A DNA stretch of 64,000 nucleotides from Lachnospiraceae bacterium. Its GTDB lineage: Bacteria > Bacteroidota > Bacteroidia > Bacteroidales > Bacteroidaceae. The stretch lies in contig CAVGTC010000001.1 of NCBI GenBank assembly GCA_963632255.1, forward strand, positions 3,965 to 67,964, written 5' to 3'. The translations under genes and the position numbers were made by a program. Below, piece after piece: positions 10,256 to 60,299 of this stretch (its first letter is position 1; each line of letters opens with the position of its first letter). A model generated the notes under the pieces. The model made no database searches. It was not told the DNA's origin and saw only the letters and a program-made list of their open reading frames with translations.

Positions 10256-10445
10256 GATGCCGAGGCACTTTGAAGGCCAAGCCGCACTTCAGTGACGAGA
10301 CACCACGGTATTCCGTGGGCCAAGTGTAGGCGTTTTAACTCGTAAGTGGCTGAAAATCAATACAGGCAAAAATATAGGGACATTCCTCGCGGGATGTCCC
10401 TATCTTGTAGTACAAAGATAATACATTTTTCCGCCGAAAGCAAAT
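10256..10445 (-). repeat. Dispersed promoter-hairpin element, copy 1
   Basis: Near-identical to 30.8-31.2, 48.8-49.25 and 60.13-60.3 kb; promoter on minus strand (TTTG at 10441-10444, TATCTTTG at 10413-10420). Confidence 0.9.
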
Positions 10446-10579
10446 CGTGCCATATCGTGTCACAAATTGACAAAATGACACTTTTCCGCCCGTTTTCCCG
10501 CATTTTCCGTTTCACGCCAGGGTATGTTTCCGACTGGGCGGGGCGGGAAAACGGACTGTTCCGGCTGCCCCTCGGCGCG

Positions 10580-13045
10580 TCACTTCGCGCACGCTGCGGA
10601 AAGCTTGCCGCCCTCAGCGGTGACCGTATATGCATGCCCTTTCTTTGTGGGGAAAGTCAGCGCGGCCGCGCCGTAGCGCACGGTGCAGTTGCCACCCGAG
10701 TGCGACATGATGCGGGCCGAGGTGAGGTGTCCGCCCCGCCAGTGTATGTCCACGCCGAAGTTGCCCCGTGCGCAAAGTCCCGTGACGCTGCCTTCGCCCC
10801 ACGCGTCGGGCAGGGCGGGCAGCAGGTCGACGCAGCCCGCGTGGCTTTGCAGCAGCATCTCCGTCACGCCCGCCGTGCCGCCGAAGTTGCCGTCAATCTG
10901 GAAAGGCGGGTGAATGTCCCAAAGGTTGTCGGCGGTGCCGTTTTTCAGGAGGTTGCCATAAAGCGTGTACGAGCGGTTGCCGTCGCGCAGGCGCGCCCAC
11001 TGGTTGAGCTTCCAGCCCATGCTCCATCCCGTCGCGCCGTCGCCCCTGTGGTTGAGTACCACGCGGCATGCCTCGGCCAGCGCGGGCGTGGTGAGCGGGG
11101 AGATGGTGTGGCCCGGGTGCAGGCCGAAGAGGTGGTTGACGTGGCGGTGCTGGTCGGCGGGGTCGTCTATGTCTTCGCTCCATTCTAGCAGCTGTCCGTA
11201 CCGCCCCACGCGGTAGGGCGCGAGGTCGCGCAGCGCGGTCTCCCAGCGGGCGGTCTCCTCCGTGTCCGTCCCCAGCTCACGTGCGGCGGCGATGCAGTCA
11301 AGCAGCAGCTCGCGTATGACGGCATGCGTGAAAGTCGTCCCCTCGTCTATCGGCCCGTGCTCGGGCGAGGTGGAGGGCGCGGCGGTGAGCGTGCCGTCCG
11401 CCTTGCGCCAGAGGAAGTCCTCGCAGAAAAGCGCGCAGCCGCGCATCAGCGGGTAGGCCGTCTCGCGCAGAAACTTCCTGTCGCGCGTGTAGTCGTAGTA
11501 GTCCCACAGGTGTGTGGCGAGCCACGGCGCCGCCACAGGGTTGTAGTTCCATGACATGTCCTGGCTTTCAAGCGGCGCGGTGAAGCCGAAGATGTTGGCG
11601 GAGATGCCCGCCGCCCATCCGCGCGCCCCCCAGTACGCTTTCGCCGTGCGCTCACCGGGCTTCTCAAGCAGCCGGATGAAGTCGGCGAGGGGCAGGGCGC
11701 ACTCGGAGAGGTTGGTGCAGAGCGCAGGCCAGTAGTTCATCTGCAGGTTGATGTTGTTGTGGTAGTCCACGCGCCACGGACCGTCCACGTTGTTGTGCCA
11801 CATCCCCTGCAGGTTGGCGGGCAGGTTGCCCGGGCGCGAGGAGGAGATGAGCAGGTAGCGGCCGTACTGGTAGTAGAGTGCCTCCAGCCCCTTGTCCTCC
11901 GCCCCCGCGCGGTAGGCGGCGAGGCGCTGCGGTGTGGGGAGGTATGATGTCTTTCCCCCGAGCGTGAGGGTGACGCGCCCGTAAAGGGCGGCGTAGTCTT
12001 TGTAGTGTTCGCTGAAGAGTTTTCCGTAACCCTTGGCCGCCGCGCGTTTCATCCACCGCGCCGTCGTGGCGGCGGGATCGGTGCCCACGTACGCCAGGCT
12101 GTCGGTGAAGGAGGGTGCGTAGTTGGGCTTGTAGTCGGTGTCAGCCGTGAGCAGTATCGTCACGTCCTCCGCACCCTCCACGGTGACGCCGCCGCCGTCG
12201 TAGCGCACGCTGCCGCCGTCGGCCACCGCCCTCACGCGCACGGCGTAGCGCATACGGTTGTTGTCAAGCCGCCCGGTATACACAAGTCCCTCCCCGTTGT
12301 CGCGGGCGAAGGTGCCCTCGCCCACGGGACTCGGCGTGTAGCGTATGGTGAGCTTTTGCGGCATGCTGCTGCGGAAGCGCGTCGCCATCACGTTGGCGGG
12401 GTAGGAGACAAAGGTGGTGCGCTCGTGGCGCGTGCCGTCGGCCGCCGTGAAGCTCACGCGGGCGAAGGCGGAGTCGACGGACAGCTCGCGGCGGTAACCG
12501 CTCACACCCCCGCTCTGCGTCCCGGTCTCCACGCAGAGTTCGCCCATCGTGGTGTACGACCCGAAGCGCCCCTGCGGCTCGCCCCATGTCTCGTAGGGCA
12601 CGTCGCTGTGGAAGTTCTCCATAGTGAGCCGCGCGGCGCGTTCCTTGTCACCCTTGGCGAAGGCTTCGCGTATCTCGGCGAGGGCGGCCGTGCAGTCGCG
12701 GTTCTGCCGCCAGTAGTCCTCCGCTCCCTTCGCCGTGTTGGGTCCGCCGCGCCACAGCGTCTTCTCGTTGAGCGTGTAGCGCTCCGTGGCGACGGAACCC
12801 ATCACGTTGCAGCCTATGCTGCCGTTGCCAAGCGGCAGGGAGGCGTACTCCCACTCGTGGTCGGCGTTGGCCGCGCCCTCGCCGGCACTGACGGGCTTTT
12901 TTTCGTTGGTGAAGTTTTCGGGGTGGCCGCCGTACCAGCATTCCCTGCCGTTGAGGGTGGTGGGGGTGTCAAACCACATGGTGTTCTGCGCGGTGGCGGC
13001 GGACGGGGCGCAGAGCAGCAGGAGGGGGAGTAGTGTACTTCTCAT
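10580..13045 (-). CDS. Glycoside hydrolase family 95 (alpha-1,2-L-fucosidase-like), secreted
   Basis: SLPLGNG, QYGRYLLISSSR, NLQGMW, YHNNINLQMNYW, HRHVNHL, PPFQIDGNFG. Confidence 0.93.
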   Translation of the reverse strand: MRSTLLPLLLLCAPSAATAQNTMWFDTPTTLNGRECWYGGHPENFTNEKKPVSAGEGAANADHEWEYASLPLGNGSIGCNVMGSVATERYTLNEKTLWRGGPNTAKGAEDYWRQNRDCTAALAEIREAFAKGDKERAARLTMENFHSDVPYETWGEPQGRFGSYTTMGELCVETGTQSGGVSGYRRELSVDSAFARVSFTAADGTRHERTTFVSYPANVMATRFRSSMPQKLTIRYTPSPVGEGTFARDNGEGLVYTGRLDNNRMRYAVRVRAVADGGSVRYDGGGVTVEGAEDVTILLTADTDYKPNYAPSFTDSLAYVGTDPAATTARWMKRAAAKGYGKLFSEHYKDYAALYGRVTLTLGGKTSYLPTPQRLAAYRAGAEDKGLEALYYQYGRYLLISSSRPGNLPANLQGMWHNNVDGPWRVDYHNNINLQMNYWPALCTNLSECALPLADFIRLLEKPGERTAKAYWGARGWAAGISANIFGFTAPLESQDMSWNYNPVAAPWLATHLWDYYDYTRDRKFLRETAYPLMRGCALFCEDFLWRKADGTLTAAPSTSPEHGPIDEGTTFTHAVIRELLLDCIAAARELGTDTEETARWETALRDLAPYRVGRYGQLLEWSEDIDDPADQHRHVNHLFGLHPGHTISPLTTPALAEACRVVLNHRGDGATGWSMGWKLNQWARLRDGNRSYTLYGNLLKNGTADNLWDIHPPFQIDGNFGGTAGVTEMLLQSHAGCVDLLPALPDAWGEGSVTGLCARGNFGVDIHWRGGHLTSARIMSHSGGNCTVRYGAAALTFPTKKGHAYTVTAEGGKLSAACAK

Positions 13046-13152
13046 AGAGTGGGAGAGCGCGTGTGCCGTGCGGCACGGCGGTAAAAAGGGGAAAGGCGTT
13101 CGCATAAATCATCTATGCAAACGCCTTAGCCGTAGACTTTGATAAGGTTGTG

Positions 13153-13226
13153 CGCTTCAGGATGGGCTTGAACCAACGACCCCCTGATTAACAGTCAGGT
13201 GCTCTAACCAACTGAGCTACTGAAGC
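13153..13226 (-). tRNA. tRNA-Asn(GTT), copy 3 in transcription order
   Basis: Reverse complement GCTTCAGTAGCTCAGTTGGTTAGAGCACCTGACTGTTAATCAGG...GGTTCAAGCCC...CTGAAGCG. Confidence 0.95.
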
Positions 13227-13272
13227 AGTGTGCAATCCGCAGGGTGCAGTAAACCGGACTCGCGTCCCGTCG

Positions 13273-13346
13273 CGCTTCAGGATGGGCTTGAACCAACGAC
13301 CCCCTGATTAACAGTCAGGTGCTCTAACCAACTGAGCTACTGAAGC
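13273..13346 (-). tRNA. tRNA-Asn(GTT), copy 2
   Basis: Identical to 13153-13226, offset 120 bp. Confidence 0.95.
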
Positions 13347-23344: not shown

Positions 23345-23557
23345 AGGCGCAGCTTGCGGCAAACTCGGCGTGCTTTTTTCGTGTCCTGCGGTGTGTGGTT
23401 GTTTTGCGAAGTGTCACAAAAACGGCACAGAAACTGACATACGGAGAATGTGACAATGTGGATTTACGGGGTCGGGCGGATTTCCCGCCGCCGGGGATGC
23501 GTCGTGGCGGTCGGTCGGGGCGGCGGTAGTTGTTGGAGGATATTCAGAAATGCCCCT

Positions 23558-23962: not shown

Positions 23963-23980
23963 GGCGGCGGGGAAGGCTTG

Positions 23981-30786: not shown

Positions 30787-31235
30787 CGCCCTTCCCGCCG
30801 CCAGGCGCGGAAATCAGTAAGTAAGCAAAACGGCGTTTTTTCTGACACTTTGAATTTCCGCCCGCATTTTAACATATTTGCTTTCGGCGGAAAAATGTAT
30901 TATCTTTGTACTACAAGATAGGGACATGCCGCGAGGCGTGCCCCTATTTTTGACCTATACTAATTATCAGCCACTTACGAGTCAAAATGCCTGCACTTGG
31001 ACCACGGAGTACCGCGGTATCTTGTCACTGGGGTGCGGCTTGGCCTTCAAAGTACCGCGGCATCTTGTCACTGAAGTGCGGCTTGGCGAAAAAAGCCCCG
31101 CGCGAGGCGTCTGAAAGTCCGCACCCTGCATTAAAGAAAGTTAAAGTTCGACTGTTTTCCGCCGCGCCTGTTTTGACACTTTGCCAACTTTTCCGGCGAA
31201 AAACAAGACAAACGAAAAAACCGCGCCTTTTCCGC
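30787..31235 (+). repeat. Dispersed promoter-hairpin element, copy 2 (long form)
   Basis: Reverse complement of 48803-49250 over about 450 bp; TTTG 30877-30880, TATCTTTG 30901-30908. Confidence 0.92.
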
Positions 31236-31381
31236 GCGGCCGCCCCCGCGCCCCGCCGGCGGGCGGACGCGCGGCCGAAAAACACAAAAAGCCGCGCGGC
31301 GGCGGGCGGGGCGCGAAGAAATTGCTAATTTTGCGTGATTTACGCAAGGTAAAAACATATTCATAACATTCAATTCGAGAG

Positions 31382-33598
31382 ATGAACGTGATTACAAAGA
31401 CCGTCGCGCTGCCTGATGGCCGCACCATCAGCATCGAGACGGGCAAGCTGGCCAAGCAGGCCGACGGCGCCGTGATGCTGCGCCTCAACAACACCGTGCT
31501 GCTGGCCACCGTCTGCGCAGCCCGCACCGCACAGCCGGGCACCGACTTCATGCCCCTGCAGTGCGACTACAAAGAGAAATACAGCGCCGCCGGCCGTTTC
31601 CCCGGCGGCTTCACAAAGCGCGAGGGACGCCCCGGCGACTACGAGATACTCACGTCGCGCCTTGTCGACCGCGCCCTGCGCCCCCTCTTCCCCTCCGACT
31701 ACCACTGTGAGGTGTACGTCAACATCACCCTCTTCTCAGCCGACGGCGTGGACTTGCCCGACGCCCTTGCCGGCTTCGCCGCATCGGCCGCCCTCGCCGC
31801 GAGCGACATACCTTTCGAGGGTCCCATCTCCGAGGTGCGCGTGGCACGCGTGGACGGCGAGTACATCGTCGACCCCACCTCCGAGCAGCTGAAAAGCGCC
31901 GACATGGACATCATGGTGGGCGCCACGGAGGAGAACATCATGATGGTGGAGGGCGAAATGGACGAAGTGCCCGAGAGCGCCCTGCTTGAGGCCCTCAAGG
32001 TGGCCCACGAGGCCATCAAGCCCATGTGCCGCCTGCAGAAGGAGCTCTCCAAGGAGCTCGGCACCGACGTGAAGCGCGAGTACGAGGACGAGGTGAACGA
32101 CGAGGAGCTGCGCGCGCAGGTGAAAGACGAGTGCTACGCCCCCGCCTACGCCATCGCGCAGGCCGGCGACCACGACAAGCACCAGCGCGAGGACGCCTTC
32201 ACCAAGATACGCGAGGACTTCAAGGAGAGCTACGCCGCCGCCCACGCCGAAATGGCCGCCGACGAGCTGGAGGAGAAAAACGCCCTCATCGACCGCTACT
32301 ACCACGACGTGGAGCGCGACGCCATGCGCCGCTGCATACTTGACGAGGGCAAGCGCCTCGACGGCCGCCGTACGGACGAGATACGCCCCATATGGTGTGA
32401 GGCGGGTCCCCTGCCCATGCCCCACGGCTCGGCCATCTTCACGCGCGGCGAGACGCAGGCGCTCGCCACCACCACCCTCGGCACGAAAATGGACGAGAAG
32501 ATGGTGGACGACGTGCTTGACAAGAGCTACATGCGCTTCCTCCTGCACTACAACTTCCCCCCGTTCTCCACGGGCGAGGCTAAGGCGCAGCGCGGCGTGG
32601 GACGCCGCGAGATTGGCCACGGGCATCTGGCGTGGCGCGCGCTGAAGGGACAGATTCCCGCCGACTTCCCCTACACGGTGCGCGTGGTGAGCGACATACT
32701 CGAGAGCAACGGCTCGTCGTCAATGGCAACCGTGTGCGCCGGCACACTCTCGCTGATGGACGCCGGCGTGCCCCTCAAGGCACCCGTGAGCGGCATCGCG
32801 ATGGGGCTCATCAAAAACCCCAGCGAGGACAAGTACGCCGTGCTGAGCGACATCCTTGGTGACGAGGACCACCTCGGCGACATGGACTTTAAGACGACGG
32901 GTACGCTCAAGGGACTCACCGCCACGCAGATGGACATCAAGTGCGACGGCCTGTCGTACGAGATACTTGAAAAGGCGCTGGCCCAGGCCAAGGCCGGCCG
33001 CGAGCACATCCTCGGCAAGCTCACCGAGACGCTCGCCGCGCCGCGCGATGACTTCAAGCCGCAGGTGCCCCGCATCGTGGCCTTCGAGATACCCAAGGAG
33101 TTTATCGGAGCCGTGATTGGCCCGGGCGGAAAGATTATCCAGGGCATGCAGGAGGACACCGGCGCCACCATCACCATAGACGAGGAGGACGGCGTAGGCA
33201 AGATACAGGTGAGCGCCCCCAACAAGGAGTCCATCGACGCCGCCGTGGCGAAGATACGCGCCATCGTGGCGATGCCCGAGGTGGGCGAGGTGTACGACGC
33301 CAAGGTGGTGAGCATCATGCCCTACGGCTGCTTCGTCGAGTTCATGCCGGGCAAGGAAGGCCTGCTGCACATCAGCGAAATTGCCTGGAAGCGCCTTGAA
33401 AGCGTGGAGGAGGCCGGCATCAAGGAGGGCGACGCCATCAAGGTGAAGCTGCTTGAGATTGACGAGAAGACCGGCAAGTTCCGCCTCTCCCACCGCGTGC
33501 TGGAAGAGAAGCCCGAGGGCTGGGAGGACCGCCCCGCGCGCCGTCCCCGCCGCGAGGGGGGCGAGGCCCGCAGCCCGCGCCGTCCGCACCGCGACTGA
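31382..33598 (+). CDS. pnp: Polyribonucleotide nucleotidyltransferase
   Basis: [38 protein letters not shown] and S1 domains. Confidence 0.98.
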
Positions 33599-34917: not shown

Positions 34918-34960
34918 CCACACCCGCGGCACGCACGCCGCCTTGAAAGGAAGAGTGACA

Positions 34961-38202: not shown

Positions 38203-38402
38203 GGCTTTACGGGCGGGACAAATTTACGGAAAAACGCACTAACCGCCTTGAAGCCGTCCGCTGTCCGCCGCTTTTGCCATGATCGCTTTACGATTTGCCA
38301 TACAAACGTCCAATCGCGCCCTTTGTTGACAAAATGCGAGATTTAATCTAAATAAGTCAGTCAGGGCTTGGAGTAACGGAAATAGTTACTACTTTTGCAG
38401 TG

Positions 38403-38654: not shown

Positions 38655-39106
38655 ATCCTGTTTTGTCCTGCCGCGCCCCCTTTGTGGCTCTTTACGGGTG
38701 CGAAAGCTCTCTTCGCCCATCGTTTTCCCTGCCGCGCAAGGGATTCGCTGCCGGAATTCCCGCTGTTCCGCCTACGCGTTTCCGCTTTTCCACCTGCTAA
38801 ATTCCGCCTTCTCCTCCCGTTTCTCACGCAACCACGTTTGATTTTGCCCTGCGAAACCACTTGACCGGGCTTCCTTATATCCAGACCGCCCGCGAGACCG
38901 CCTCTTGCGCCATTCACCCGCTGCCGCCGCGCACAAGAAAGCGCACTTGCCGCACAGGATGCGCAGCAAGTCCGCCTTTTAGGTTAATTTCGGTCAAATC
39001 CGTGTCCGCCTTCAAGCCTTTATAGAACCCGCCTATAATGTATGCCAGCCGTAGAGTATGCCCGTGCGGGGCGCAACCTCCGGCAGGGAGGGGCGCATTT
39101 GGCGCG

Positions 39107-40015
39107 TCAGAAGCCCCACTTGGCCTTGACGCACTGGTCCTCCACGCTCTCCTCATCCGCCACTTTGGAAAGGTTGGGGAAGAAGTTGATGCCCGTGAGC
39201 TGCTCCAGCCGGTTGACACTGACGGCGTGCGTGCCAATCACCGAAAGCGGTGCTTTGTTTTCGTACGTGTAACCGTACTCTTTGTGCTCCATCCAGAAAG
39301 CGATGGAGCTGTATCCGCCGTTCTTGATGGCAAGCAAAGCCATGAAGTAGTACTTCGGCACAGCCACCCGCGCCCCGTTGCTGCGCGTCTGGTAGCCCAG
39401 CGTCTGGTCGAGCGTCCCGCCTTTCACCACATAAAGTGTGTCGGCAAAGCTGGAGCTGCGTCCGAGCGTCTGCACACGGGCTTCAAGCGTAGTCCAGTAG
39501 CCCTGGTTGAAAGAGGAGAGCATCGGTGACATATTGGACATGTAAAAGGTAAGGTAGTTGGCGCTGACGGAGTAGAGGCGGTCGGCCGAGGCGCAGAGGT
39601 GGCCGCGGTTGTAGCCCCAGTCAAACGTCTGCGTGCCGATGCGCAGCGAGGCGGGGAGGTCGGGGTCGTCGGCCCAGGGGTTGTCGCTGCGTCCCGTGCC
39701 TTTCGCACGCGTGACACCGTCGAAGCGGAAAGCCACCCAGCGCGAGTGGTACTTCGCCTTGTTGTACTCAAGGCAGTAGGCCATCACGTTCTTTCCGTTT
39801 TCGGTGGTGGTGTGAATCAGCGTCACCGTCGAGCCGTCGGTGCATGTCGCGGGGCACTCCATGCGTGTGGTGACATCGGCGGAGGCCTCCGGCGTGCTGG
39901 TGTCGCTGCCGCCCTCCTTGCCGTAGCTTACGCGCCCGGAGCTGTCGTCGTCACCGCACGAAAGGAGGAGGACGGCGGAAAAGGAAAGGAGAATATATAT
40001 TGCGTATTTCTTCAT
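39107..40015 (-). CDS. DNA/RNA non-specific endonuclease lipoprotein (His-Me finger, NucA/EndA-like)
   Basis: Lipobox LLLSC, YNRGHLCAS, TFYMSNMSP..FNQGYW..LE, VPKYYF. Confidence 0.9.
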   Translation of the reverse strand: MKKYAIYILLSFSAVLLLSCGDDDSSGRVSYGKEGGSDTSTPEASADVTTRMECPATCTDGSTVTLIHTTTENGKNVMAYCLEYNKAKYHSRWVAFRFDGVTRAKGTGRSDNPWADDPDLPASLRIGTQTFDWGYNRGHLCASADRLYSVSANYLTFYMSNMSPMLSSFNQGYWTTLEARVQTLGRSSSFADTLYVVKGGTLDQTLGYQTRSNGARVAVPKYYFMALLAIKNGGYSSIAFWMEHKEYGYTYENKAPLSVIGTHAVSVNRLEQLTGINFFPNLSKVADEESVEDQCVKAKWGF

Positions 40016-40102
40016 TGTCGTCTGTCTGCGTAAACAATAGGAAAGCCGCTGCCGCAAAAGGACTTGCGGCGGCGGCTTTCCCCTGTTTCAGGAAGCCGGG
40101 GG

Positions 40103-41713
40103 TTACTCGGCGTAGTAGATGGTGAACGAAACGATGCGCAGCTGCGTCGGACTGCCCGTCGTGGTGTTGGCGTTGGTGAGCAGCGTGGAGGTTGCGCCAA
40201 TGCTGCTTACCCACAGTTTCTGCCCGTTGACTGTCACCGTGCCCGGCTCGGCGTTGATAAGTCCGTTAGCCGTGTATACCGTGCCCTGGTAGCTGTCGCA
40301 GTTGAACAGGATGGAGGCAATCTTTTTGGAAGAGGCCACCGTGATGGTGTTCTTGGGATACACGCGGATGTTTTTGCCCGAGGTGTAGTATTTCGGGGTG
40401 TTGGTTGCGCCGCCGCCCGCAAAGGTCAGCGTCGTGCCGTCCGAAAGGGTGAGCGTCTCCATGGCGGTGCCGTTCTCATAACCGAAGGACTCTGCCGTAG
40501 CCGTAATGAAGTTGCTTGTCACCGCGCCCTCGGGGTCGCTTCCTGTGTCACCGCCTGTGTCACCGCCGGTGTCGCCTCCGCCCGTGCTCTCGCCCGGTTT
40601 GCCTGCCGCGATGCTGAAATTCTTCACCTCCCAAGTGGAGCCGCTCGTGGCGTTGGTGTTGTAGCGGAAGGCTATGCGCACCGTCTTGCCCATGTACTCG
40701 GAGGGTATGGCGATGTCAGACGAGGAGAAAGTCGACCAGTCCGAGCCCTCGGTGTGCGTCTGGTTGAGCACCGTCCAGCCCTCTGCGGCGTTGGCCTCGT
40801 TGAAGGCGGTGGAGATGAGCAGCTGCTGGTTTTCGTCTCCCTTGTTGTAGCGCAGGATATAGTCGTAGCTTACGTGCGCCTCGGTCTGTCCCTGCAGCGA
40901 TATCTCAGGGCTCACGAGGTAGTAAGTGCCAGCCGTCGTGGTCTTGGACGTGTTGTCGTAACCCGTGGCCTTTGCCGTGCTGTAGTCAATGGTCCACGCG
41001 CCGGAACCGCTTGTGAGGTAGCTGGTGAAGCTGCCGAGTGTCGTGGAGAATGCCTCCGTGTAAGGCAGGGTCTTCGTGCCGCCGGTGTCGGTGCCGCCGC
41101 CCGATGCGCCGCCCTCGTTCACCGCGAAGTTTTTCACCTCCCAGGTGGAGCCGCTCGTGGCGTTGGTGTAGTAGCGGAAGGCTATGCGCACCGTGTCGCC
41201 CATATACTCGGCGGGGATGCTCACGTCAGCCGAGGAGAAAGTCGACCAGTCCGCGCCCTCGGTGTGTGTCTGGTTGAGCACCACCCAACCCTGCGCGGGG
41301 TTGGAGGCGTCAAAGGAGGGGTTGATGAGTACCTGCTGGTTTTCGTCTCCCTTGTTGTAGCGCAGGATGTAGTCGTAGGTGACGTGTGCCGCGCTCTTTC
41401 CCACAAGCGATATCTCGGGACTTATGAGGTAGTACGTGCCTGCCGTCGTGGTCTTGGTTGTGTTATCGTAACCCGTGGCCTTGGCCGTGCTGTAGTCAAT
41501 CTCCCACTTGCCCGAGCCGTCGGTGGTGTAGTTGGTGAAACTTCCGAGTGAGGAGGCGAACGACTCCTCGTAGGGCAGCGTCTTCACGTTGCTTTCGCTT
41601 TCGCCGCTTCCGCTCGTTCCGGCGTTGACCCCGTAAGGTGCCGGCACATCCTCGCAGGCTGTGAAACCGAGCGCCATTACGGCGGCAGCGAGGCTAAGAA
41701 TGTATTTCTTCAT
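40103..41713 (-). CDS. Surface lipoprotein with two tandem near-identical ~160-aa beta-rich domains
   Basis: Lipobox FTAC-EDVP; internal duplication with about 510-nt period; Gly/Thr linkers (GGDT x3). Confidence 0.75.
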   Translation of the reverse strand: MKKYILSLAAAVMALGFTACEDVPAPYGVNAGTSGSGESESNVKTLPYEESFASSLGSFTNYTTDGSGKWEIDYSTAKATGYDNTTKTTTAGTYYLISPEISLVGKSAAHVTYDYILRYNKGDENQQVLINPSFDASNPAQGWVVLNQTHTEGADWSTFSSADVSIPAEYMGDTVRIAFRYYTNATSGSTWEVKNFAVNEGGASGGGTDTGGTKTLPYTEAFSTTLGSFTSYLTSGSGAWTIDYSTAKATGYDNTSKTTTAGTYYLVSPEISLQGQTEAHVSYDYILRYNKGDENQQLLISTAFNEANAAEGWTVLNQTHTEGSDWSTFSSSDIAIPSEYMGKTVRIAFRYNTNATSGSTWEVKNFSIAAGKPGESTGGGDTGGDTGGDTGSDPEGAVTSNFITATAESFGYENGTAMETLTLSDGTTLTFAGGGATNTPKYYTSGKNIRVYPKNTITVASSKKIASILFNCDSYQGTVYTANGLINAEPGTVTVNGQKLWVSSIGATSTLLTNANTTTGSPTQLRIVSFTIYYAE

Positions 41714-41805
41714 TTTGTCGCGTGTTTGTTATGTGGTTATTTGTCGGTGTGTCATAGCGTTCGTGCCGCGCGGTCTTCCGCGCCGCCGCCCGCCGTGGCG
41801 TAGTG

Positions 41806-42819
41806 TCAGTTTGCGGAGATGTCCGTTGTGTCGCGCAGCTGCACCTGCCAGTTGTCATAGTAGGAAAGCACGCCCGTGTAGGTGCGGCTGTCCTCGGGCA
41901 GCTCGAGGTAGGATATTACGTTCTTGGTGGAGGTGCGCAGCGTCACCTTGCTGTTGTTGCTTTCCAGGAGGATGGTGCGGTCCACGCCGTAGCCCTGGTC
42001 GTGCAGTTCGTAGGGGGCGAAAATCTTCTTCCCGTTGGCGGAGAGCGTTTCCACCTTGTCAAGCACGTCGTCCTCGCTTCCCTTGTCAAGGGAGGTCTTC
42101 TTTGCGCCCTGCACCTCGTCTATCGTGCCGCGCACCTTGGCAAGCAGCGGGGTGTACTGGTAGGTCTTGTTGGCGGAGGCGCGCAGCCACGCGTCACCCG
42201 TCGTGCCGGTGAGGTCGAGCGGTGTGAGCTCGGGAGCCGACATGTCAGGCGCACCCACCAGCTGCACGTTGGTGGCGAGCAGCTGGAAGAGGATGGGGCC
42301 GAGGTTGATGTTCCCGTACGACGACTTCAGCGGCTGCCCGATGCGGGGCACTTTGCTGTACACGCCGCAGTAAAGCCCTTTGAGGTTCACCTTGACGCGC
42401 TGACCCAGCTTGATGTAGGGGTAGATTGCCGTGGTCTTCACGCCGAGTATGATGCACTGGTCGTGTGCCGGGTCGGACGCGTCCTTTGTGCTGTCAATGT
42501 TGCGCAGCAGCAGCGTCTGGTAGAGGTTGCCGCTGACGTCGTTGGCCACCACCACGCCGGTGATGATGACATCCTCGTTCACTTTGGTGAAGAAGTTGCT
42601 TGAGTTGCGCTTGTAGTCGCATCCCTCGCTGCTGGCGCAGTACTTCGTCTTCACGTCGAGTATCGTGGAGTTGACCTCACCTATGTCCGTGGGGCTTGTC
42701 ACGCTGTACGAGGCGGTCGCAGGCTCGTCGTGGTCGTCCATGCACGAGGTGGCGAGCGTGCCCGTCAGCCCCAACGCCGCAACAGCCAGAGCGGAAAATA
42801 ACTTGTATCTCGTAAACAT
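41806..42819 (-). CDS. DUF5689-like lipoprotein (putative OB-fold)
   Basis: Lipobox LATSC-MDD, ITGVVVAND.SGNLY, GQRVKVNLKGL, WQVQLR..DI. Confidence 0.65.
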   Translation of the reverse strand: MFTRYKLFSALAVAALGLTGTLATSCMDDHDEPATASYSVTSPTDIGEVNSTILDVKTKYCASSEGCDYKRNSSNFFTKVNEDVIITGVVVANDVSGNLYQTLLLRNIDSTKDASDPAHDQCIILGVKTTAIYPYIKLGQRVKVNLKGLYCGVYSKVPRIGQPLKSSYGNINLGPILFQLLATNVQLVGAPDMSAPELTPLDLTGTTGDAWLRASANKTYQYTPLLAKVRGTIDEVQGAKKTSLDKGSEDDVLDKVETLSANGKKIFAPYELHDQGYGVDRTILLESNNSKVTLRTSTKNVISYLELPEDSRTYTGVLSYYDNWQVQLRDTTDISAN

Positions 42820-42869
42820 AATTGCCTTAGTGTGTGTTGTTGGATTGTTATACTCCCGGAGCCGCCTCC

Positions 42870-45614
42870 TTAGAACTTGAAGCCGATGTTGAGGAAACCG
42901 TTGATGGAGTTGGCGTAATAGTACTTGGAGTTCTTTGAGAAGCTGTAAGCCTTTTTCTCGCCCGAGGAGTAGTTGTCGTCACGGTTCTGCTCGTAGCCTC
43001 CGGTTTTGAGGTTGCGGTTGTTTGTGATGTTCTGCACCGAGAGGTTGATGCTGAGGCTCTTTCCCTTTTTAAGGCGGATGTACTTTCCGATGCTTGCGTC
43101 AAGCATGAAGCCGCCCTTTGCCTTTTCCTGCTTGGGTGAGTGCGTCTCCACGATGTTGAGGTCGCGGTCAAGCAGGATGGCACCGTTCTCCTTTATCTCC
43201 GAGGGGGTCATATTGAACTTCACCACGGCGTCCTTTATGCTGTTGTCGGATATTTCCCACGTCTTGCCGAGGTTGTTCTTGTTGGTCATCACGCTCGTCA
43301 GGCGGCGGTACTCGGAGAAGTCGATGTACACGCGGTCGTAGTAGTTGAGGTTCGCGCTGAAAAACCACCCCTTTATGTTGTAGTCGAAGCCGAGGCTCAC
43401 TGCCGTGAGCGGCGTGCCGCTTTCGCGCATCCCCTTTGCCAGCACGCGCAGCGGCAATACCTTTTGGTTGGCTGTGTTGGTGGTGATGTTGCCGTCGGTG
43501 TCCTTGGTGGTCTGTGTGATGGTCCACTTGTTGAGGTCGGCCAGCGTGCTGGCGTCCATGCCCTCGTAAGCCACCTGCGCCAGCGGGTTGTTGACATACT
43601 TCGCCTCGCTGTACGTGCCGATGAGGTGTACGGAGAAGTTGGAGGTTATCTGGTAGTTGAAGGCTGCCTCCACGCCGTAGTGCTCACGCTCCACGCCGCT
43701 CATGGTGAGGTAGGTGAAACGCGACTCCTGGTCGTTGTAGAAAGCCGTCTGCTCCACGCCGCCGCTGAAGCGTGAGTAGTATCCGCCCACCTTGCCCGAG
43801 AAGTTGCCGAAGCGGAAGGTGTAGGAAAGGTCGGCGTGGAAGATGTTCTCGTTGGAGAGGTTGTCCACGAAGTTGTTCTGCATGCGCGGGGCAACAAACG
43901 AGTTGCGTGCCAGCGGGGCGTTGCTCTCCGCGCCGAAGTTGAGCGCGATGACATGCGAGCCGCTGGGGCGCATCGTCAGGCCGAAGCGTCCGCCGCCGCC
44001 GAGGAACTTCGCCTTGCCGCTTCGCCCGAGCGAGTTTTGCGGGGCGCGGCCGTTGCGCATCAGGCCCTCGCGCTCAATGGTAGTGCCCTCGCCGAAGGCG
44101 GTGAGGTTGTACTGCCACATGCCCTTGTTGTACTGGTAGAGGCCGTAGGCGCGTGCCTTGTTGACGAAGATGTTATAGTTGTACCCGAACTTGTCGTCCA
44201 CGCCAATCTGGCGGTTGGGGTTGTCGAGGTCGTTCTGCGCCTGCGTGCTGCCCTCGCCGTAGTCGTTGGCGGCAAACTTGTCGATGTCCGTGTAGCGCGT
44301 GGCGCCGAGGAGGTCGGCCATCGTCTTGTAGTGCATGCCCTTCGTCGTGTTGAGCTGCACGCCCACTGTGTACTTGTGGTTGGGGTTTACGCTGTGGTTG
44401 AAAGCCGTGTTGAAGACAAACGCCATCTGGTCGTTGTGGCGGCGCTCCTGGTAGTAGAGAGCCTCGCCGCCCTGCGCCTCGTTCTGGCGGTTGACGTAGT
44501 ACATGCGGTCCCAGTCAATCTGCCGGTTGGCCTTGCTGCTCTTCCAGTAGTCGTAGAGGCTGTTGTACTGGTCGAGGTACCACGGCGTGGAGGCCAGGCT
44601 CTCCGGGGTGTTGGCTCCGCCTTTTTCCGTGTCGTACACGTCGAAGATGGAGCTGGGCATGTTTTTGTAGTAGTCGGGGCGCGGGTCGTAAGCGTCGCCG
44701 TTCCACCCCAGCGCGGTGCTGCTGTACATGGCGTACTTGAAGCCCGCCGAGGTGGTGAGCTTCATGTTGTCGCGCATCTTCCAGTCCCAGGTGAGAATGG
44801 CGGTAGGCTCAAAGTCGTTCACCACGCGGGCGTTGCGGCGTTCGCCGTTTTGGTAGCCCCAGTTGGGGTTGTAGTAGTGCGAGTTTGCCAGCCAGTAGGC
44901 CTCCTCGGTCGAGGCGCCCTGCTGTCCGCGCTCGGTGGGTGAGCCGAAGGTCACCAGTGAGAGGGCGTGCTTGTCGCCGAAACGCTTCTCGACGGAGAGC
45001 AGGTAGGAGAGCGAGTTGTAGAAAGTGCCCTCGATGTAGCCCTTGTTGGCCCAGCGGTAGCCCACCAGCCCGGCGAAAGCCCAGCCCGAGGGCAGCAGTC
45101 CCGTGGCGTAGCTGTACATGCCGCGTGCCACATAGTTGCGGTTGCAGCCGGAGAGGGTCAGTTTGTTGCCGTGGGCAAACTGGCTCGCCCTCGTGTTGAC
45201 GCTCGTCGCGCCGCCTATGCCGCCCACGCCGATGTGGTTGAACTCGTAGGCGTTGAGACCCTCCTGGTTGCGCGTGGCGTCGTTCATGCCGCCCACCATG
45301 CTGTAGCTGAAACGCCCCATCTCCAGGTCGTTGAGCTGCAGCCCGTTCATATAGTAGCTGTTGTACTGGTTGTCAAGCCCGCGCACGCGGAAGCGCATAG
45401 GGCTGAAGAGGTAGCCCACTTCGGAGAGGTAGGGGTCGCTCTTTGTGCCCGTGATGGTCGAAACGGTCTGGGACGCGTCGTTGTCCTCGTCAAGCTGCGA
45501 CTCCGTGAAGGTAAAGTCGGAGTTGTCAACCTGCAGGGTGTCAACTGGCTGCTGCGCGTACGCCCCTGTGGCGAACAGCAGCGCGGCGGCCGTGATTTTT
45601 ACACCTTTGCTCAT
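42870..45614 (-). CDS. TonB-dependent receptor-like outer-membrane beta-barrel (non-SusC)
   Basis: Signal peptide, RFRVRG plug-like motif, aromatic-rich beta strands, C-terminal GFKF. Confidence 0.8.
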   Translation of the reverse strand: MSKGVKITAAALLFATGAYAQQPVDTLQVDNSDFTFTESQLDEDNDASQTVSTITGTKSDPYLSEVGYLFSPMRFRVRGLDNQYNSYYMNGLQLNDLEMGRFSYSMVGGMNDATRNQEGLNAYEFNHIGVGGIGGATSVNTRASQFAHGNKLTLSGCNRNYVARGMYSYATGLLPSGWAFAGLVGYRWANKGYIEGTFYNSLSYLLSVEKRFGDKHALSLVTFGSPTERGQQGASTEEAYWLANSHYYNPNWGYQNGERRNARVVNDFEPTAILTWDWKMRDNMKLTTSAGFKYAMYSSTALGWNGDAYDPRPDYYKNMPSSIFDVYDTEKGGANTPESLASTPWYLDQYNSLYDYWKSSKANRQIDWDRMYYVNRQNEAQGGEALYYQERRHNDQMAFVFNTAFNHSVNPNHKYTVGVQLNTTKGMHYKTMADLLGATRYTDIDKFAANDYGEGSTQAQNDLDNPNRQIGVDDKFGYNYNIFVNKARAYGLYQYNKGMWQYNLTAFGEGTTIEREGLMRNGRAPQNSLGRSGKAKFLGGGGRFGLTMRPSGSHVIALNFGAESNAPLARNSFVAPRMQNNFVDNLSNENIFHADLSYTFRFGNFSGKVGGYYSRFSGGVEQTAFYNDQESRFTYLTMSGVEREHYGVEAAFNYQITSNFSVHLIGTYSEAKYVNNPLAQVAYEGMDASTLADLNKWTITQTTKDTDGNITTNTANQKVLPLRVLAKGMRESGTPLTAVSLGFDYNIKGWFFSANLNYYDRVYIDFSEYRRLTSVMTNKNNLGKTWEISDNSIKDAVVKFNMTPSEIKENGAILLDRDLNIVETHSPKQEKAKGGFMLDASIGKYIRLKKGKSLSINLSVQNITNNRNLKTGGYEQNRDDNYSSGEKKAYSFSKNSKYYYANSINGFLNIGFKF

Positions 45615-45941
45615 AAATAGATAAGAAATTGGGGCGCAGTGTCCCCGTTTGCCAATTACATGTGCAAATGTAGGGCAAAAGGCGGAAAGGAATTTTACAT
45701 TTATGTGAAAAAATGCCGTGCCTCCCGCCGCGCCCGCCCCACTTTCGGAAAATAATTAGGAAATTTGCAACCGTCCGCGCCCTCTTGCGGCTTGCCCCCG
45801 CACCCCCGCACACGGGGGGTGGCGGCCGCGCGAAGCCTTTGTCTGCGGGGCGCGCCTCGCCATGCGGGAAGGCTTTCCCGGGGCACACCTTATATATATA
45901 GACGAAACCATATCACACGACACACTTACATAACTCTTATT

Positions 45942-47081
45942 ATGAAGCGTCTCCCCCTCACCCTCGCAGCCGTGCTGCTTGCGCTCGCGGCTCTCTGCTC
46001 GTTCACCACGGCGCCCGGCACGCGCCCCGCGCCGCAGCAGAAGCGGTACGCGCTCTACGGCGTGGCTTTCTACAACCTTGAAAACCTCTTCGACACGCTG
46101 CACGACGCGGGGAAAAACGATTACGAGTACCTGCCCGGCGGCACGATGAAGTGGGGGCGCATGAAGTACGAGGCCAAGCTGCACAACATGGCGCGCGTGC
46201 TGTCGGAGCTGTGTACGGACAAGCTGCCCCTCGGCCCGGCGGTGATAGGCCTGTCGGAGGTGGAGAACAGCCGCGCCCTTGAGGATCTGCTCGCCCAGCC
46301 CGCCCTCGCCGGACGCGGGTACAAATACATCGACTACCCCGGCGTCGACCGCCGCGGCGTGGAGTGCGCCCTGCTGTACAACCCGCGTTTCTTCAAGTGC
46401 GAGGGTTCGATGATTGTGCCCTACTTCTACAAGGACGCGTCGCAGCCCGACGTCGACCTCGGCTTCCGCATGGAGGGCGGCGAGGTGGTGCCCTACGACA
46501 CCCTGCGCGGCGACACCACTTACATCACGCGCGGCTTCCTCGTGGCGCACGGCCGCCTGGCCGGTGAGGAGATGTACTTCATCGTCAACCACTGGCCCTC
46601 GCGCGGTGCGGCAAGTCCCGCCCGCGAGCGTGCCGGCTACCAGGTGCGCTGCCTCAAGGACAGCATCATGAAATACCACACCGCCGCCAAGGTCATCATC
46701 ATGGGTGACATGAACGACGACCCCGGCGACAAGAGCATCACCTCCGCCCTGGGTTGCGTCAGCCGCCAGAAGGACGCCAAGAAGTCCGCCGACCTTTTCA
46801 ACCCGTGGGGCGAGACGCTCTACAAGGTGGGGCAGGGCACGCTGCTGTACAACGGCAAGTGGAACCTCTTCGACCAGATTATCCTCTCGGCCAACCTGCT
46901 CGGCACGGACCGCAGCACGCTGAAGTATTACAGGCATGAGATATTCATGCGCGACTACCTCTTCCAGCAGGAGGGCAAGTACAAGGGCTCGCCCCTCCGC
47001 ACCCACGCCGGCGGCGTGTGGCTCAACGGATACTCTGACCACCTGCCCACGTATGTCTACCTTGTGAAGGAGGCCAACTGA
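45942..47081 (+). CDS. Secreted endonuclease/exonuclease/phosphatase (EEP) family nuclease
   Basis: FYNLENLFD, GLSEVEN, VNHWPSR, MGDMND, FDQI, GYSDHLP. Confidence 0.9.
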   Translation: MKRLPLTLAAVLLALAALCSFTTAPGTRPAPQQKRYALYGVAFYNLENLFDTLHDAGKNDYEYLPGGTMKWGRMKYEAKLHNMARVLSELCTDKLPLGPAVIGLSEVENSRALEDLLAQPALAGRGYKYIDYPGVDRRGVECALLYNPRFFKCEGSMIVPYFYKDASQPDVDLGFRMEGGEVVPYDTLRGDTTYITRGFLVAHGRLAGEEMYFIVNHWPSRGAASPARERAGYQVRCLKDSIMKYHTAAKVIIMGDMNDDPGDKSITSALGCVSRQKDAKKSADLFNPWGETLYKVGQGTLLYNGKWNLFDQIILSANLLGTDRSTLKYYRHEIFMRDYLFQQEGKYKGSPLRTHAGGVWLNGYSDHLPTYVYLVKEAN

Positions 47082-47267
47082 GCGCGCCCCTGCGGCGGCC
47101 CCCGCGAATAAGGCGACAGGCAAGTCCCGCCCGCGAGCGCGGACGGACAATTGACACACAACGGCGCGGAGACGGCGGCGCGGGGACGGAAAGCCCCGCC
47201 GCGCCGCCCCCGCGCCGCACGGCGAAACACACACAAGCACACCAAACCAAGACACACATCAAATACT

Positions 47268-48629
47268 ATGGCACAAAAACCCGGCATACCCAAAGGCACG
47301 CGCGACTTCGGTCCCGTCGAGACGGCGCGCCGCAACTACATCTTCGGCACGATACGCTCGGTGTACGCCCTTCACGGCTACCGCCAGATAGAGACGCCCG
47401 CCATGGAGAACCTCTCCACCCTTATGGGAAAGTATGGCGAGGAGGGCGACAAGCTGCTCTTCAAGATTCTCAACTCGGGTGAGTTCAAGGGCGCGGTCAC
47501 CACGGACGACTACAACGCCAAGACCTCCCTGCAGCTTGCCCCGCGCTTCTGCGAGAAAGGCCTGCGCTACGACCTTACCGTGCCTTTCGCACGCTATGTG
47601 GTGCAGCACCGTGACGAGCTGCAGATGCCCTTCAAGCGCTACCAGATACAGCCCGTGTGGCGCGCCGACCGCCCGCAGAAGGGACGCTACCGCGAGTTCT
47701 ACCAGTGCGACGCCGACGTGGTGGGTTCCGACTCGCTGCTCAACGAGGTGGAACTTATGGAGATTGTCGACGAGGTGTTCTCCCGCTTCGGCATACGCGT
47801 GGCGATAAAGATAAACAACCGCAAGATTCTCTCCGGCATTGCCGAGGTCATCGGCGCGGCGGACAAGATTGTCGACATCACCGTGGCCATTGACAAGCTC
47901 GACAAGATAGGGCTTGACAACGTCAACGCCGAGCTGCTGGCCGCCGGCCTCACCCCTGAGGCCGTGGAGCGGCTGCAGCCGGTCATCTCGCTCACGGGCA
48001 CCAACGCCGGGAAGCTCGCCACAATGCGCGGCGTGCTGGCGGACAGCGAGACGGGACTGAAAGGCCTTGACGAGGTGGCTTTCGTGCTTGACACGCTGGA
48101 GGGCAGCGGACTGCGCAACGCGCTGGAGCTTGACCTCACGCTCGCCCGCGGCCTCAACTACTACACGGGCTGCATCTTCGAGGTGAAGGCGCTTGACGTG
48201 CAGATAGGCTCCATCACGGGCGGCGGACGCTACGACAACCTCACGGGCATCTTCGGCATGCCGGGGCTGAGCGGCGTGGGCATCTCCTTCGGAGCCGACC
48301 GCATTTACGACGTGCTGGCGCAGCTCGACCTCTACCCCACGGACACGGCCTCGGGCGTGGAGGTGCTTTTCTGCAACTTCGGCGAAAAGGAGGCGGCGTG
48401 CTGCCTGCGCCTTGCCGCCGCGCTGCGCAAGGCGGGGCACGCTGCCGAGGTGTACCCCGACAGCGTGAAGATGAAGAAACAGATGGCTTACGCCAACGCG
48501 CACAACGTGCCTTTCGTCGCCCTCGTGGGGGAGACGGAGATGGAGCAGGGCACCGTTTCGCTGAAGAATATGGCGACGGGCGAGCAGCGCACCGTCAAGG
48601 CGGACCAACTGCCCGCCGCGCTGGGCTGA
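47268..48629 (+). CDS. hisS: Histidine--tRNA ligase
   Basis: [49 protein letters not shown]. Confidence 0.97.
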
Positions 48630-48802
48630 CGCGCCGCCCTGTCATCGCTGGGGAGTGGCAAGACTTTCTTTGAAAGCCGGCTTGGTTTTCCGACACCGGA
48701 CAGCCACTCTTGCGCGGACATGGCCTATCATACTGCCGCACGGGTTCGCGCCTTTCCGCCACGCCTTTCCCCCGTTCCGTTTTTGGGGCGGGAGGGACGC
48801 GG

Positions 48803-49250
48803 GGCGGAAAGGCGCGATTTTTTGTTTGTCTTGTTTTTCGCCGGAAAAGTTGGCAAAGTGTCAAAACGGGCGCGACGGGAAACAGTCGAACTTTAACTTT
48901 CTTTAATGCAGGGTGCGGACTTTCGGGCGCCTCGCGTGGGGCTTTTTTCGCCAAGCCGCACCCCAGTGACAAGATGCCGCGGTACCTTGAAGGCCAAGCC
49001 GCACCCCAGTGACAAGATACCGCGGTACTCCGTGGCCCAAGTGCAGGCATTTTGACTCGCAAGTGGCTGAAAATCAATATAGGTCCAAAAATAGGGACAT
49101 TCCTCGCGGGATGTCCCTATCTTGTAGTACAAAGATAATACATTTTTCCGCCGAAAGCAAATATGTTAAAATGCGGGCGGAAATTCAAAGTGTCAGAAAA
49201 AACGCCGTTTTGCTTACATCCTGATTTCCGCATGTGGCGGCGGAAAGGCG
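48803..49250 (-). repeat. Dispersed promoter-hairpin element, copy 3 (long form)
   Basis: Reverse complement of copy 2; TATCTTTG at 49130-49137 and TTTG at 49158-49161 on minus strand. Confidence 0.92.
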
Positions 49251-59177: not shown

Positions 59178-59266
59178 GTCCGCTGCCCGCGCCGGTGCGT
59201 GTTGTGCGCATTTTAATTGCTATTTTTGCGGATGGAAAGGCGGGCTGAGCCGAGCAAAGAGGAAAA

Positions 59267-59674
59267 ATGAAGCAGCACACGTTTAAGAAACCCGAGCACC
59301 TCTGCCTCCAGACGGAGATAGAGGCACTTTTCGCGCCGGGCAGCCCGTCTGTGTCGGTGTATCCTGTGCGGGCGGTTTTCCGCGTACTGCCCTATGGCGG
59401 GCGCGGCCCGCGCGTGAAAGTGCTGCTCAGCGTTTCGAAGCGCCGCCTGCGCCACGCCGTTGACCGCAACCGCGCCAAGCGCCAGTTGCGCGAGGCGTAC
59501 CGCTTGCAAAAACGCCTGCTTTGGGACGTGCTGCCAGCGGGGGCGGCCGCGCACGTCGCTTTCATCTGGCTTGCCGACCACACCAAGGAGACGCCGCGCG
59601 TGCAGCGCAGTGTCGGCACCCTTTTGCAGCGCATCGGCGAAAAGTGCGCAAAGGCGGCCGCCGTCCCCGAGTAG
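59267..59674 (+). CDS. rnpA: Ribonuclease P protein component
   Basis: SVSKRRLRHAVDRNRAKRQLREAYR RNR motif. Confidence 0.9.
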   Translation: MKQHTFKKPEHLCLQTEIEALFAPGSPSVSVYPVRAVFRVLPYGGRGPRVKVLLSVSKRRLRHAVDRNRAKRQLREAYRLQKRLLWDVLPAGAAAHVAFIWLADHTKETPRVQRSVGTLLQRIGEKCAKAAAVPE

Positions 59675-59776
59675 TTTTTGCGGCAGTCGTGCAAATTGGC
59701 TTTGGCACGCCATTCGGTGGCAATTTATAAGCCCCGCCGTTTGCGCAGCCCGTTCACCCCAATCCAATATGAGGCA

Positions 59777-59998
59777 ATGGAAAATCCGCTCACCACGCTG
59801 CTCATACTCCCCATCCGTTTCTACCAGCGTTTTGTCTCACCCCTCACGCCGCCCGTGTGCCGTTTCACCCCCACCTGCTCGCAGTATGCCGTGGAGGCGC
59901 TGCGCAAGCACGGACCCGTGAAAGGGCTTTACCTTGCCGTGCGCCGCATTTTGCGTTGCCACCCGTGGGGCGGGAGCGGATACGACCCCGTGCCGTAG
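59777..59998 (+). CDS. yidD: Membrane protein insertion efficiency factor
   Basis: [34 protein letters not shown]. Confidence 0.95.
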
Positions 59999-60132
59999 GC
60001 GGCGTGGTGCTGTCGGCGAGGTTTTTTACAGCGGAGAACCTTGTCTTTTGTGACGAAATTTTGAAACGCGTCGCCCCAAAAGATTTATGAAAGTTTAACG
60101 GTGTCCGACACCGGCGGCGGGCGTGTTTGGGG

Positions 60133-60299
60133 CAAGCCGCACCTCAGTGACAAGATGCCGCGGTATTCCGTGGGCCAAGTGCAGGTATTTTGACTCGTAA
60201 GTGGCTGAAAATCAATATAGGCAAAAATATAGGGACATTCCTCGCGGGATGTCCCTATCTTGTAGTACAAAGATAATACATTTTCGGGCGTTTTGCAAA
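60133..60299 (-). repeat. Dispersed promoter-hairpin element, copy 4 (short form)
   Basis: Core matches copies 1-3; TATCTTTG at 60268-60275 and TTTG at 60296-60299 on minus strand. Confidence 0.9.

Follow-up and report, generated by a model that had tools for sequence, protein, structure and literature searches.

A non-coding promoter-terminator cassette recurring at even spacing through a Bacteroidaceae genome

Background

What kind of sequence recurs four times in 64 kb, each time between unrelated genes, and how did it come to lie there? The question arises from a stretch of 64,000 nucleotides, referred to here as the window, of a Bacteroidaceae genome (assembly GCA_963632255.1, contig CAVGTC010000001.1, positions 3,965 to 67,964), in which a first-pass annotation made from the letters alone had described four copies of a dispersed non-coding element and proposed either a non-autonomous mobile element or a multicopy RNA-gene family. 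Sequence comparison located all four copies where they had been placed, and Pfam confirmed the unrelated neighbours (NUDIX and GH95; YchF and PNPase; HisS and an SSF symporter; YidD and a SusC-type TonB receptor). What that annotation overlooked is a promoter closed by a terminator, a phased array, the fact that the segment between copies 2 and 3 is inverted, and the regular intervals at which copies occur. The unit, which we call the cassette, opens with an end module, a promoter and a hairpin that a T-run follows; next come a YTGATWWTCAR box and an array of four to six semi-palindromic units, and the end motif TTAA-N6-TAAA and a second end module close it. The reading that we put forward, as quite possible rather than probable, is that of a non-autonomous cassette that spreads replicatively, acts at the DNA level and maintains an exclusion zone; this reading and one in which the copies are landmarks kept by the host can both hold. 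The genome holding the window is called G000, other G numbers denote congeneric genomes, C a contig and L a locus; papers are cited by PMC identifier for the content of excerpts.

Results

Copy number and spacing

From the density in the window, more than 100 copies had been projected for the genome. A profile search together with an end-motif scan of all contigs of the G000 assembly (2.33 Mb, 142 contigs, 61% GC) gave about 124, counted from 23 internal matches and from cassette halves at 202 of the 284 contig ends. Further copies thus lie outside the window, and the presence of the cassette at most contig ends explains why these assemblies break.

The 93 gaps measurable in G000 average 16.1 kb with a coefficient of variation (CV) of 0.35 and a minimum of 8.0 kb; none falls below 8 kb, where a shifted exponential predicts about 30. 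Of the 28 contigs shorter than 8 kb, a class that binning may under-sample, not one is bounded by copies on its two sides. Inside long contigs, where the comparison was with positions drawn at random from intergenic gaps defined in six ways, spacing was again more even than chance in G136 (35 gaps, CV 0.48 against 0.72-0.88 in random draws; p at most 0.007), G162 (10 gaps, CV 0.36; p at most 0.004) and G014 (5 gaps, CV 0.24; p at most 0.02). Neighbouring copies in G000 are direct in 46 pairs and inverted in 47, and because the two classes are equally common, deletion between direct repeats alone fails to explain the spacing. A few closer pairs occur as exceptions in G136: on C4 two left ends are separated by 317 bp, and C66 and C89 hold gaps of 3.0-3.5 kb.

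Gain, loss and rearrangement

The closest relatives by pnp are G162 (90%) and G014 (89%). In both, the symporter gene lies directly upstream of pnp without an element, and the other junction reads ychF, element, hisS, so that the 17.6-kb segment from pnp to hisS is inverted relative to the window, where copies 2 and 3 bracket it in inverted orientation. The long stretch that these two copies had been said to share is real: they are 94% identical across 163+273 nt (about 436 nt), which makes them the closest of the 153 pairs among 18 full G000 copies (median 61%). Intramolecular replicative transposition of IS26 leaves such an arrangement of inverted copies (PMC4471558, as excerpted). The copy 2/3 inversion would match a process of that kind, and insertion followed by recombination and conversion would fit as well.

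Comparison of species shows the cassette being gained and lost at intergenic positions. The orthologous sites of copy 4 and of the copy at C3:31353 are empty in both G014 and G162, and a G000 copy is lacking at all nine collinear G014 sites and all three collinear G162 sites. Between G014 and G162 themselves, 38 of the 48 copies in G014 have no flank that recurs beside any of the 36 copies compared in G162; flanks are common at the other 10, none of them flipped. The frequency with which orthologous sites are empty between species argues that the cassette spreads. Empty sites, flank turnover and genome copy number together support the earlier proposal of a non-autonomous mobile element. In the group of G109 and G026, 14 of 18 copies share a flank, again with none flipped, and three attempts to find close filled and empty pairs were confounded by other insertions.

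Copies also recombine with one another and reshuffle the chromosome. Across 354 kb of G014/G162 a copy stands at 20 of 29 breakpoints, against 4 of 58 collinear gaps longer than 150 bp (odds ratio 30, p 3e-9), and one clean reciprocal flank swap joins two copies. Flank orientation relative to G000 is random (21 concordant, 19 not), which suggests that the same gaps have been used repeatedly and independently. Another route is seen in two head-to-head fusions at the hairpin, one internal to C15 and one at the end of contig C96.

Several other sequences were seen beside copies. At L264 (G136:C3) a 191-bp insertion resembling a transposable element of the miniature inverted-repeat type (MITE), with inverted ends of about 19 bp and a short TTTAA-type duplication, lies just left of a copy in G136 and is absent from the corresponding strain locus L472. 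Leucine-rich repeat surface-protein genes stand behind the cassette at L215, L225, L226, L230, L244 and L287, with a common leader of about 600 bp and differing left contexts, and look as if they had moved together with it. At L058, L061, L064 and L073 of G136 the left side of the copy is directly adjoined by a doublet of GTAG-type palindromes, preceded in two cases by a duplicated partial promoter. A TIR-domain gene cassette starting at TAAGTTAAAG (L250 and L219) is found inside an acyltransferase gene in G103 and beside a cassette copy in G109.

Conservation in place

A metagenome strain about 98% identical to G136 shares 14 filled sites with it. The search itself set the end motif in the strain, and boxes were required to agree with the pattern, with no pair discarded for misfit; so defined, the promoter shows 2 changes in 364 positions against 103 in 2544 for the flanks (p 1e-4), and at the same sites the counts are 11/559 for the hairpin, 0/224 for the TTAA end motif and 71/1606 for the array. 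The promoter spacer, which the pattern leaves unconstrained, changed once in 196 positions (p 0.006). It is not conserved in G109/G026 (7/181) or G014/G162 (20/56), two pairs whose box conservation is partly built into the detection pattern. Conservation of the promoter in place favours a host role, or else protection of a bound promoter, as a reading of these alignments.

Anatomy of the cassette

The core had been described as 150-190 bp. A 190-nt family is indeed recovered in the window at 10256-10445, 48973-49162 and 60111-60300 (83-90%), inverted with respect to 30876-31064, and the core proper runs for about 270 bp from promoter to TTAA end motif; imperfect inverted modules of about 50 bp surround it in G000 and bring the full unit to about 430 bp in most copies. 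The features of the window are as follows.

10098..10515, minus strand: copy 1, between GH95 and NUDIX; synteny breakpoint against G162
Parts of copy 1, minus strand: promoter 10444-10413; hairpin 10406-10373; T-run 10372-10368; TTAA end 10190-10175
23401..23440, plus strand: solo end module without core, at a synteny breakpoint; one of three internal solo modules in the genome
30790..31225, plus strand: copy 2, full unit of about 435 bp, between ychF and pnp
30797..30865, plus strand: copy 2 left end module, AAAATC-N4-TGTAAG...CTGACA-N4-TGA, which the right module repeats imperfectly and inverted
30877..30908, plus strand: copy 2 putative Bacteroidota promoter, -33 box TTTG at 30877-30880 and -7 box TATCTTTG at 30901-30908
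30915..30951, plus strand: copy 2 terminator-type hairpin and T-run; predicted transcript of about 40 nt; -21.8 kcal/mol, z -5.9
30960..30970, plus strand: copy 2 YTGATWWTCAR-type box, found in some lineages only
30975..31120, plus strand: copy 2 array, built of semi-palindromic units of 21-22 bp that repeat as 43-bp dimers; no stable fold, z 0.0
31130..31145, plus strand: copy 2 end motif, TTAA-N6-TAAA, at a distance of 222 nt from the -7 box
31170..31225, plus strand: copy 2 right end module
31236..48802, no strand: 17.6-kb pnp...hisS segment, inverted against G014 and G162, flanked by the mutually inverted copies 2 and 3
48815..49250, minus strand: copy 3, between the symporter gene and hisS
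Parts of copy 3, minus strand: promoter 49161-49130; hairpin 49123-49092; T-run 49091-49087; TTAA end 48907-48892
60035..60340, minus strand: copy 4, short-array form, at the yidD/SusC site
Parts of copy 4, minus strand: promoter 60299-60268; hairpin 60261-60228; TTAA end 60099-60084

The solo end module is possibly the scar of a lost copy, and the same long gap at that breakpoint holds two 53-nt direct repeats (85%; 23846-23963). A fifth copy lies just past the window (G000:C1:75133-75865), with its -7 box interrupted by a transposase-coding insertion which, from its end sequence, we take to be IS4-like; similar ends adjoin several G026 and G109 copies. Elsewhere the window holds a match to the SAM-II long-loop riboswitch (9166-9225) and three tandem tRNA genes of 120-bp period (13153-13466).

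The TTTG and TATCTTTG boxes are spaced like the Bacteroidota primary promoter (-33/-7), whose consensus is given as TAnnTTTG/TTTG in excerpts of PMC7366714, and a TTTAAC motif stands immediately upstream of the promoter of copy 2. Over 108-112 copies identity is 98% for the -7 box, 95% for the -33 box, 68% for the spacer and 59% for the end module, the anchor used to collect them spanning the -7 box and the 5' stem and so inflating the figures for those parts. Copies within a called open reading frame (ORF) number 0 of 56 in six long stretches, and neighbouring genes follow no orientation rule by which the promoter would serve them (53 start after it, 47 converge). The promoter string was met in 65 viral loci as well, where inspection by eye places it directly upstream of phage ORFs or an RNA gene and the cassette is absent; among the viral contigs L133-L195 many large ones have, by eye, an apparent tmRNA gene behind it.

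About 7 nt after the -7 box begins the hairpin, followed by the T-run. The four window hairpins fold far better than shuffles (z -5.2 to -5.9), whereas the end module (z -0.45 on the left of copy 2) and the array fold no better than theirs. Behind the promoter, 42 of the 44 copies in G000 have a stem of at least 9 pairs with at least 5 T, a feature of only 3 in 85 other G000 promoters and 2 in 62 viral ones; it recurs in 36/38 copies of G014, 24/31 of G162, 7/7 of G024 and 14/20 of G136, and at lower rates in G109 and G026 together (15/35), G073 (1/4) and other congener loci (13/21). In the equal-length hairpins of G014 and G162 (42 of 69), 8 of 18 pairs vary on both sides while 94% of cells are paired and a U-G pair is retained in 28 of 42; this covariation exceeds shuffles and slid controls, and overstates independence since the copies are kin.

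Downstream, the YTGATWWTCAR box resembles an IHF site, and of its 112 genome matches 103 fall within an element, next to one or at the end of a contig. Array periodicity is 21-22 or 42-43 bp in every lineage looked at, and distances from the -7 box to the end motif cluster at 191, 202, 212, 222 and 232 nt, giving a Rayleigh R of 0.62 at a 10.4-10.5 bp period over 61 lineage-distance values. In G136, 38 copies measure 226, 246-249 or 269-270 bp; G073 and G079, at 198-199 nt, are out of phase. Hairpin length varies among lineages while the helical phase mostly persists. The TTAA-N6-TAA string resembles only the inner core of dif, and the dif pattern used matched no G000 site for comparison. Promoter-less 21-bp phased arrays, some with a YTGAT box or TTAAC ends, were also seen at other intergenic sites, pattern-negative genomes included (L111, L248, L249, L373, L375, L093, L100), and the phased array may be an older and wider module than the cassette.

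Distribution

One promoter pattern matched in 28 of 148 congeneric genomes, with at least 5 matches in 13 of them, and in none of the other 120; two further patterns add G073 (33) and G110 (25) and lift G136 to 191. The layout recurs, diverged in sequence, in at least 15 of the 148. When 19 copies taken from 16 genomes are aligned, the promoter alone is invariant, and as parts go, species retain only a promoter and the terminator right behind it. End modules differ by lineage, from the imperfect inverted modules of G000, whose ends fade, to inverted repeats of about 10 bp (TTAACA/TGTTAA) in G136. The TTTAACA-promoter pattern was absent from 368 genomes of 28 other genera of the family, a pattern specific enough to the lineage that absence of the cassette is unproven, and a promoter-side pattern had 9 matches in the genome collection (6 Alloprevotella sp., 3 Bacteroidales/Bacteroidaceae).

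That the element is undescribed, as first supposed, agrees with the searches. Rfam gave no match at gathering score (best E 0.54 for the G000 element, and none in 11 congener loci), nor did the phage and plasmid collections. A metagenome scan with the G000 core was negative in a collection from which near-identical records may be absent, and so gave no empty site from the same species as G000. A literature search, whose coverage excluded subscription journals and supplements, found no paper describing this cassette.

Discussion

How the cassette might work and spread

The variability of the RNA sequence, the phased ends and the modules resembling protein sites place the function in the DNA and that of transcription in cis. 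A protein bound at the TTAA ends as well as at the end modules and along the 21-bp array would bend the core of about 250 bp into a looped complex, in which transcription of the RNA of about 40 nt may act by opening or supercoiling the DNA, and the terminator would shield adjacent genes and so permit a load of 120-190 copies. A new copy would be made replicatively by a separate enzyme, copied in and at times inverting the DNA between donor and target, and resident copies would exclude newcomers within about 4-8 kb, in the manner of the transposition target immunity of Mu, Tn3 and Tn7.

Several results weigh against this proposal. At the ychF-hisS junction the G014/G162 copy is oriented opposite to what the inversion model needs. 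Movement looks slow, for all 14 sites common to G136 and its near-identical strain are filled (sites located from the filled side), and G109 still shares flanks with G026 at 14 of 18 copies. DDE elements with known target immunity have target duplications and sharp ends; a target duplication was no better supported in 38 G136 and 17 G000 copies than in shuffled pairs, and no sharp terminal bases were seen at the fading ends of G000 copies. Conservation of the promoter in place is not what a purely selfish element predicts, and the helical phase may stem in part from gain and loss of 21-bp units together with a 10-bp repeat within the end motif. A mobiliser was sought and not seen: G000 (94.6% complete) has 0 matches to the Y1 HUH transposase (PF01797), the IS110/IS1111 DEDD recombinase (PF02371), reverse transcriptase (PF00078) or Rpn; its four tyrosine recombinases read as XerC, XerD and two island or prophage integrases; IstB is absent from G000, G014 and G162 except for DnaA-like matches and does not track the cassette; no enzyme recurs in 393 flanking ORFs, whose clustering gave only leucine-rich repeat surface proteins and housekeeping genes; and 397 kb of G136 contain no long copy. 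Drafts collapse multicopy enzymes and the whole proteome was not scanned against Pfam, so the absence of a mobiliser is unproven; the same collapse of repeats applies to the autonomous insertion sequence (IS) sharing the cassette ends, of which none was found in the draft assemblies.

A candidate mobiliser, the resolvase-domain gene of C19, was rejected: it is present in G000, G014, G162 and pattern-negative genomes and missing from G024, G073 and G075. This solo gene (L245:1462-2097 in G000) is patchy in the genus (12 of 148 genomes) and, as we take it, lacks the usual N-terminal catalytic motif.

The direct repeat reported at the ends of copies 2 and 3 holds in part. Copy 3 does carry GCGGAAAGGCG at either end (48804 and 49240); it is not a feature of the family, this 11-mer having 33 occurrences in G000 and the longest end-to-end repeat of 17 full copies averaging 7.2 nt against 6.4 in shuffled pairs, and the comparison with shuffled pairs rules it out as a general target duplication. 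The cassette works like a MITE and also like a replicative IS; the failed duplication test and the failure to find a parent are the reasons why we do not file it as either.

Competing explanations

A possible account, if a rather doubtful one, is that each copy is selected in place by the host as a bent, protein-bound site that loads RNA polymerase, so that the copies divide the chromosome into units of about 10-17 kb as topological barriers, nucleoid anchors or nodes of recombination repair. Spacing would then be host selection and rearrangement a side effect, with the origin of the spread left aside. The even spacing in four genomes irrespective of orientation speaks for this account, as do the promoter, spacer and TTAA end kept in place in G136 and its strain while the array drifts like the flanks, the lack of polymorphism at any of those 14 sites, and the failure to find a mobiliser. 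It is harder to reconcile with the majority of congeners, near-complete ones included, that have no match to the patterns used, with the unconserved spacer of the G109/G026 and G014/G162 pairs, or with the high turnover of sites between species and the low copy number of several lineages. A related proposition, which we hold tentatively and do not think likely, is a chromosome-partitioning cassette of a kind that the papers searched do not describe: a self-spacing promoter-terminator-array unit every 10-17 kb, functional at each site and cutting the chromosome into exchangeable gene blocks. There the cassette might set local topology, or fire as a local origin, and spread without a dedicated transposase, a version that we regard as no more than possible.

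The RNA-gene half of the first-pass proposal survives in a structured terminator hairpin of about 35 nt; that hairpin is the sole structured part and its sequence varies between species. A small-RNA gene whose hairpin RNA of about 40 nt acts in trans, for example as a decoy for a protein or polymerase, with copies setting the dose, would account for a candidate promoter and intrinsic terminator of its own, the invariance of the promoter in the 19 copies from 16 genomes, the covarying hairpin, and the stem and T-run of 42 of 44 G000 copies. We think it improbable, for the RNA sequence, stem length and loop vary between species, the transcript is scarcely more than a terminator, and the array, phased end and spacing are left unexplained; the covariation may come in part from palindrome-correcting mutation and related copies (27 A-C mismatches against 49 G-U).

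Equally hard to credit is an ordinary MITE whose IS transposase has collapsed from the drafts, with spacing and conservation as by-products of assembly and of selection against close pairs. The cassette is non-coding, multicopy and within 50-1000 bp, its G000 ends are imperfect terminal inverted modules of about 50 bp, contig ends show unassembled IS-type sequences (which we label, presumptively, IS4, IS21 and ISL3), and promoters, IHF sites and internal minisatellites are known features of some MITEs (PMC4596501, PMC10969869, excerpts). No target duplication or clearly fixed terminus was found, however; the end modules vary by species while the inner promoter is invariant, no observed IS-type end resembles the cassette ends, and spacing persists inside long contigs. 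A true MITE beside a G136 copy has a crisp repeat-and-duplication pattern that the cassette lacks.

A selfish or secondary replication origin is very unlikely: its promoter and short RNA would prime or activate, its 21-bp units would be iterons (the layout is reminiscent of iteron origins), its A/T-rich TTAA repeats would unwind, local firing would seed copies by template switching and origin interference would space them, and although fourfold sites contain more G in genes directed away from the nearest copy, in G000 (difference 0.027, p 0.0002) and G136 (0.033, p 0.004), and fuzzy ends, flank capture and hairpin-centred head-to-head fusions fit enzyme-free copying, the skew is reversed, not significantly, in G162 and G014, on C60 of G136 a long-range strand bias continues over 17 of 21 segments, the same skew could result from operon position and no initiator was found. 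An inverton was dismissed on finding no flip at the 10 G014/G162 and 14 G109/G026 shared sites or the 14 G136/strain pairs, and a retroelement on the lack of a reverse transcriptase and on a promoter that every copy contains although the predicted transcript does not include it.

Relation to known systems

Dispersed bacterial repeats are usually clustered or random. BrickBuilt, a MITE of Porphyromonas gingivalis with 19 copies, near-perfect 23-nt repeats and 12-bp IS5-type terminal repeats matching ISPg1/ISPg9, is like the cassette in being an intergenic Bacteroidales element with a leader, short tandem units in variable number, a tail and a promoter (PMC4596501, as excerpted); the cassette differs in its 120-190 copies, its degenerate units of 21-22 bp, a promoter that faces inward and is shut off by a terminator, and in that no matching IS was found for it. 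Correia elements and RUP, BOX and SPRITE are likewise high-copy non-coding repeats with promoters, an IHF site or a terminator; in the excerpted text BOX, RUP and SPRITE are bunched in clusters and Correia promoters drive neighbouring genes (PMC10969869), whereas cassette copies are over-dispersed and their promoter is terminated within about 45 nt. With IS26 the cassette shares an inversion bracketed by two inverted near-identical copies and rearrangement hot spots (PMC4471558, excerpts), and unlike IS26 and other replicative transposons it showed no transposase, fixed ends or diagnostic split duplication. Even spacing and molecular drive have been argued for DNA uptake sequences, which in the excerpted account are short oligomers arising by point mutation (PMC1939737) where the cassette is a multi-part unit of 250-430 bp.

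The apparent exclusion distance is like the target immunity of Mu, Tn3 and Tn7. Invertible promoters of Bacteroidota place a TAnnTTTG promoter within a few hundred bases bearing flanking inverted motifs; unlike them, the cassette has no flipped copy at the shared sites compared and its promoter does not read into a gene.

Significance

What is new here is the even spacing of the copies and, in one strain pair, the conservation of the promoter in place. The cassette explains both the breaks in these assemblies and the scrambled gene order between close species. A cassette so spaced, whose candidate strong promoter terminates itself and whose ends are in helical phase, points either to natural target immunity in a non-coding element served by a separate enzyme or to a domain landmark encoded in sequence, and either reading gives a direct test of how domains of about 10 kb, or the spacing of insertions, are set.

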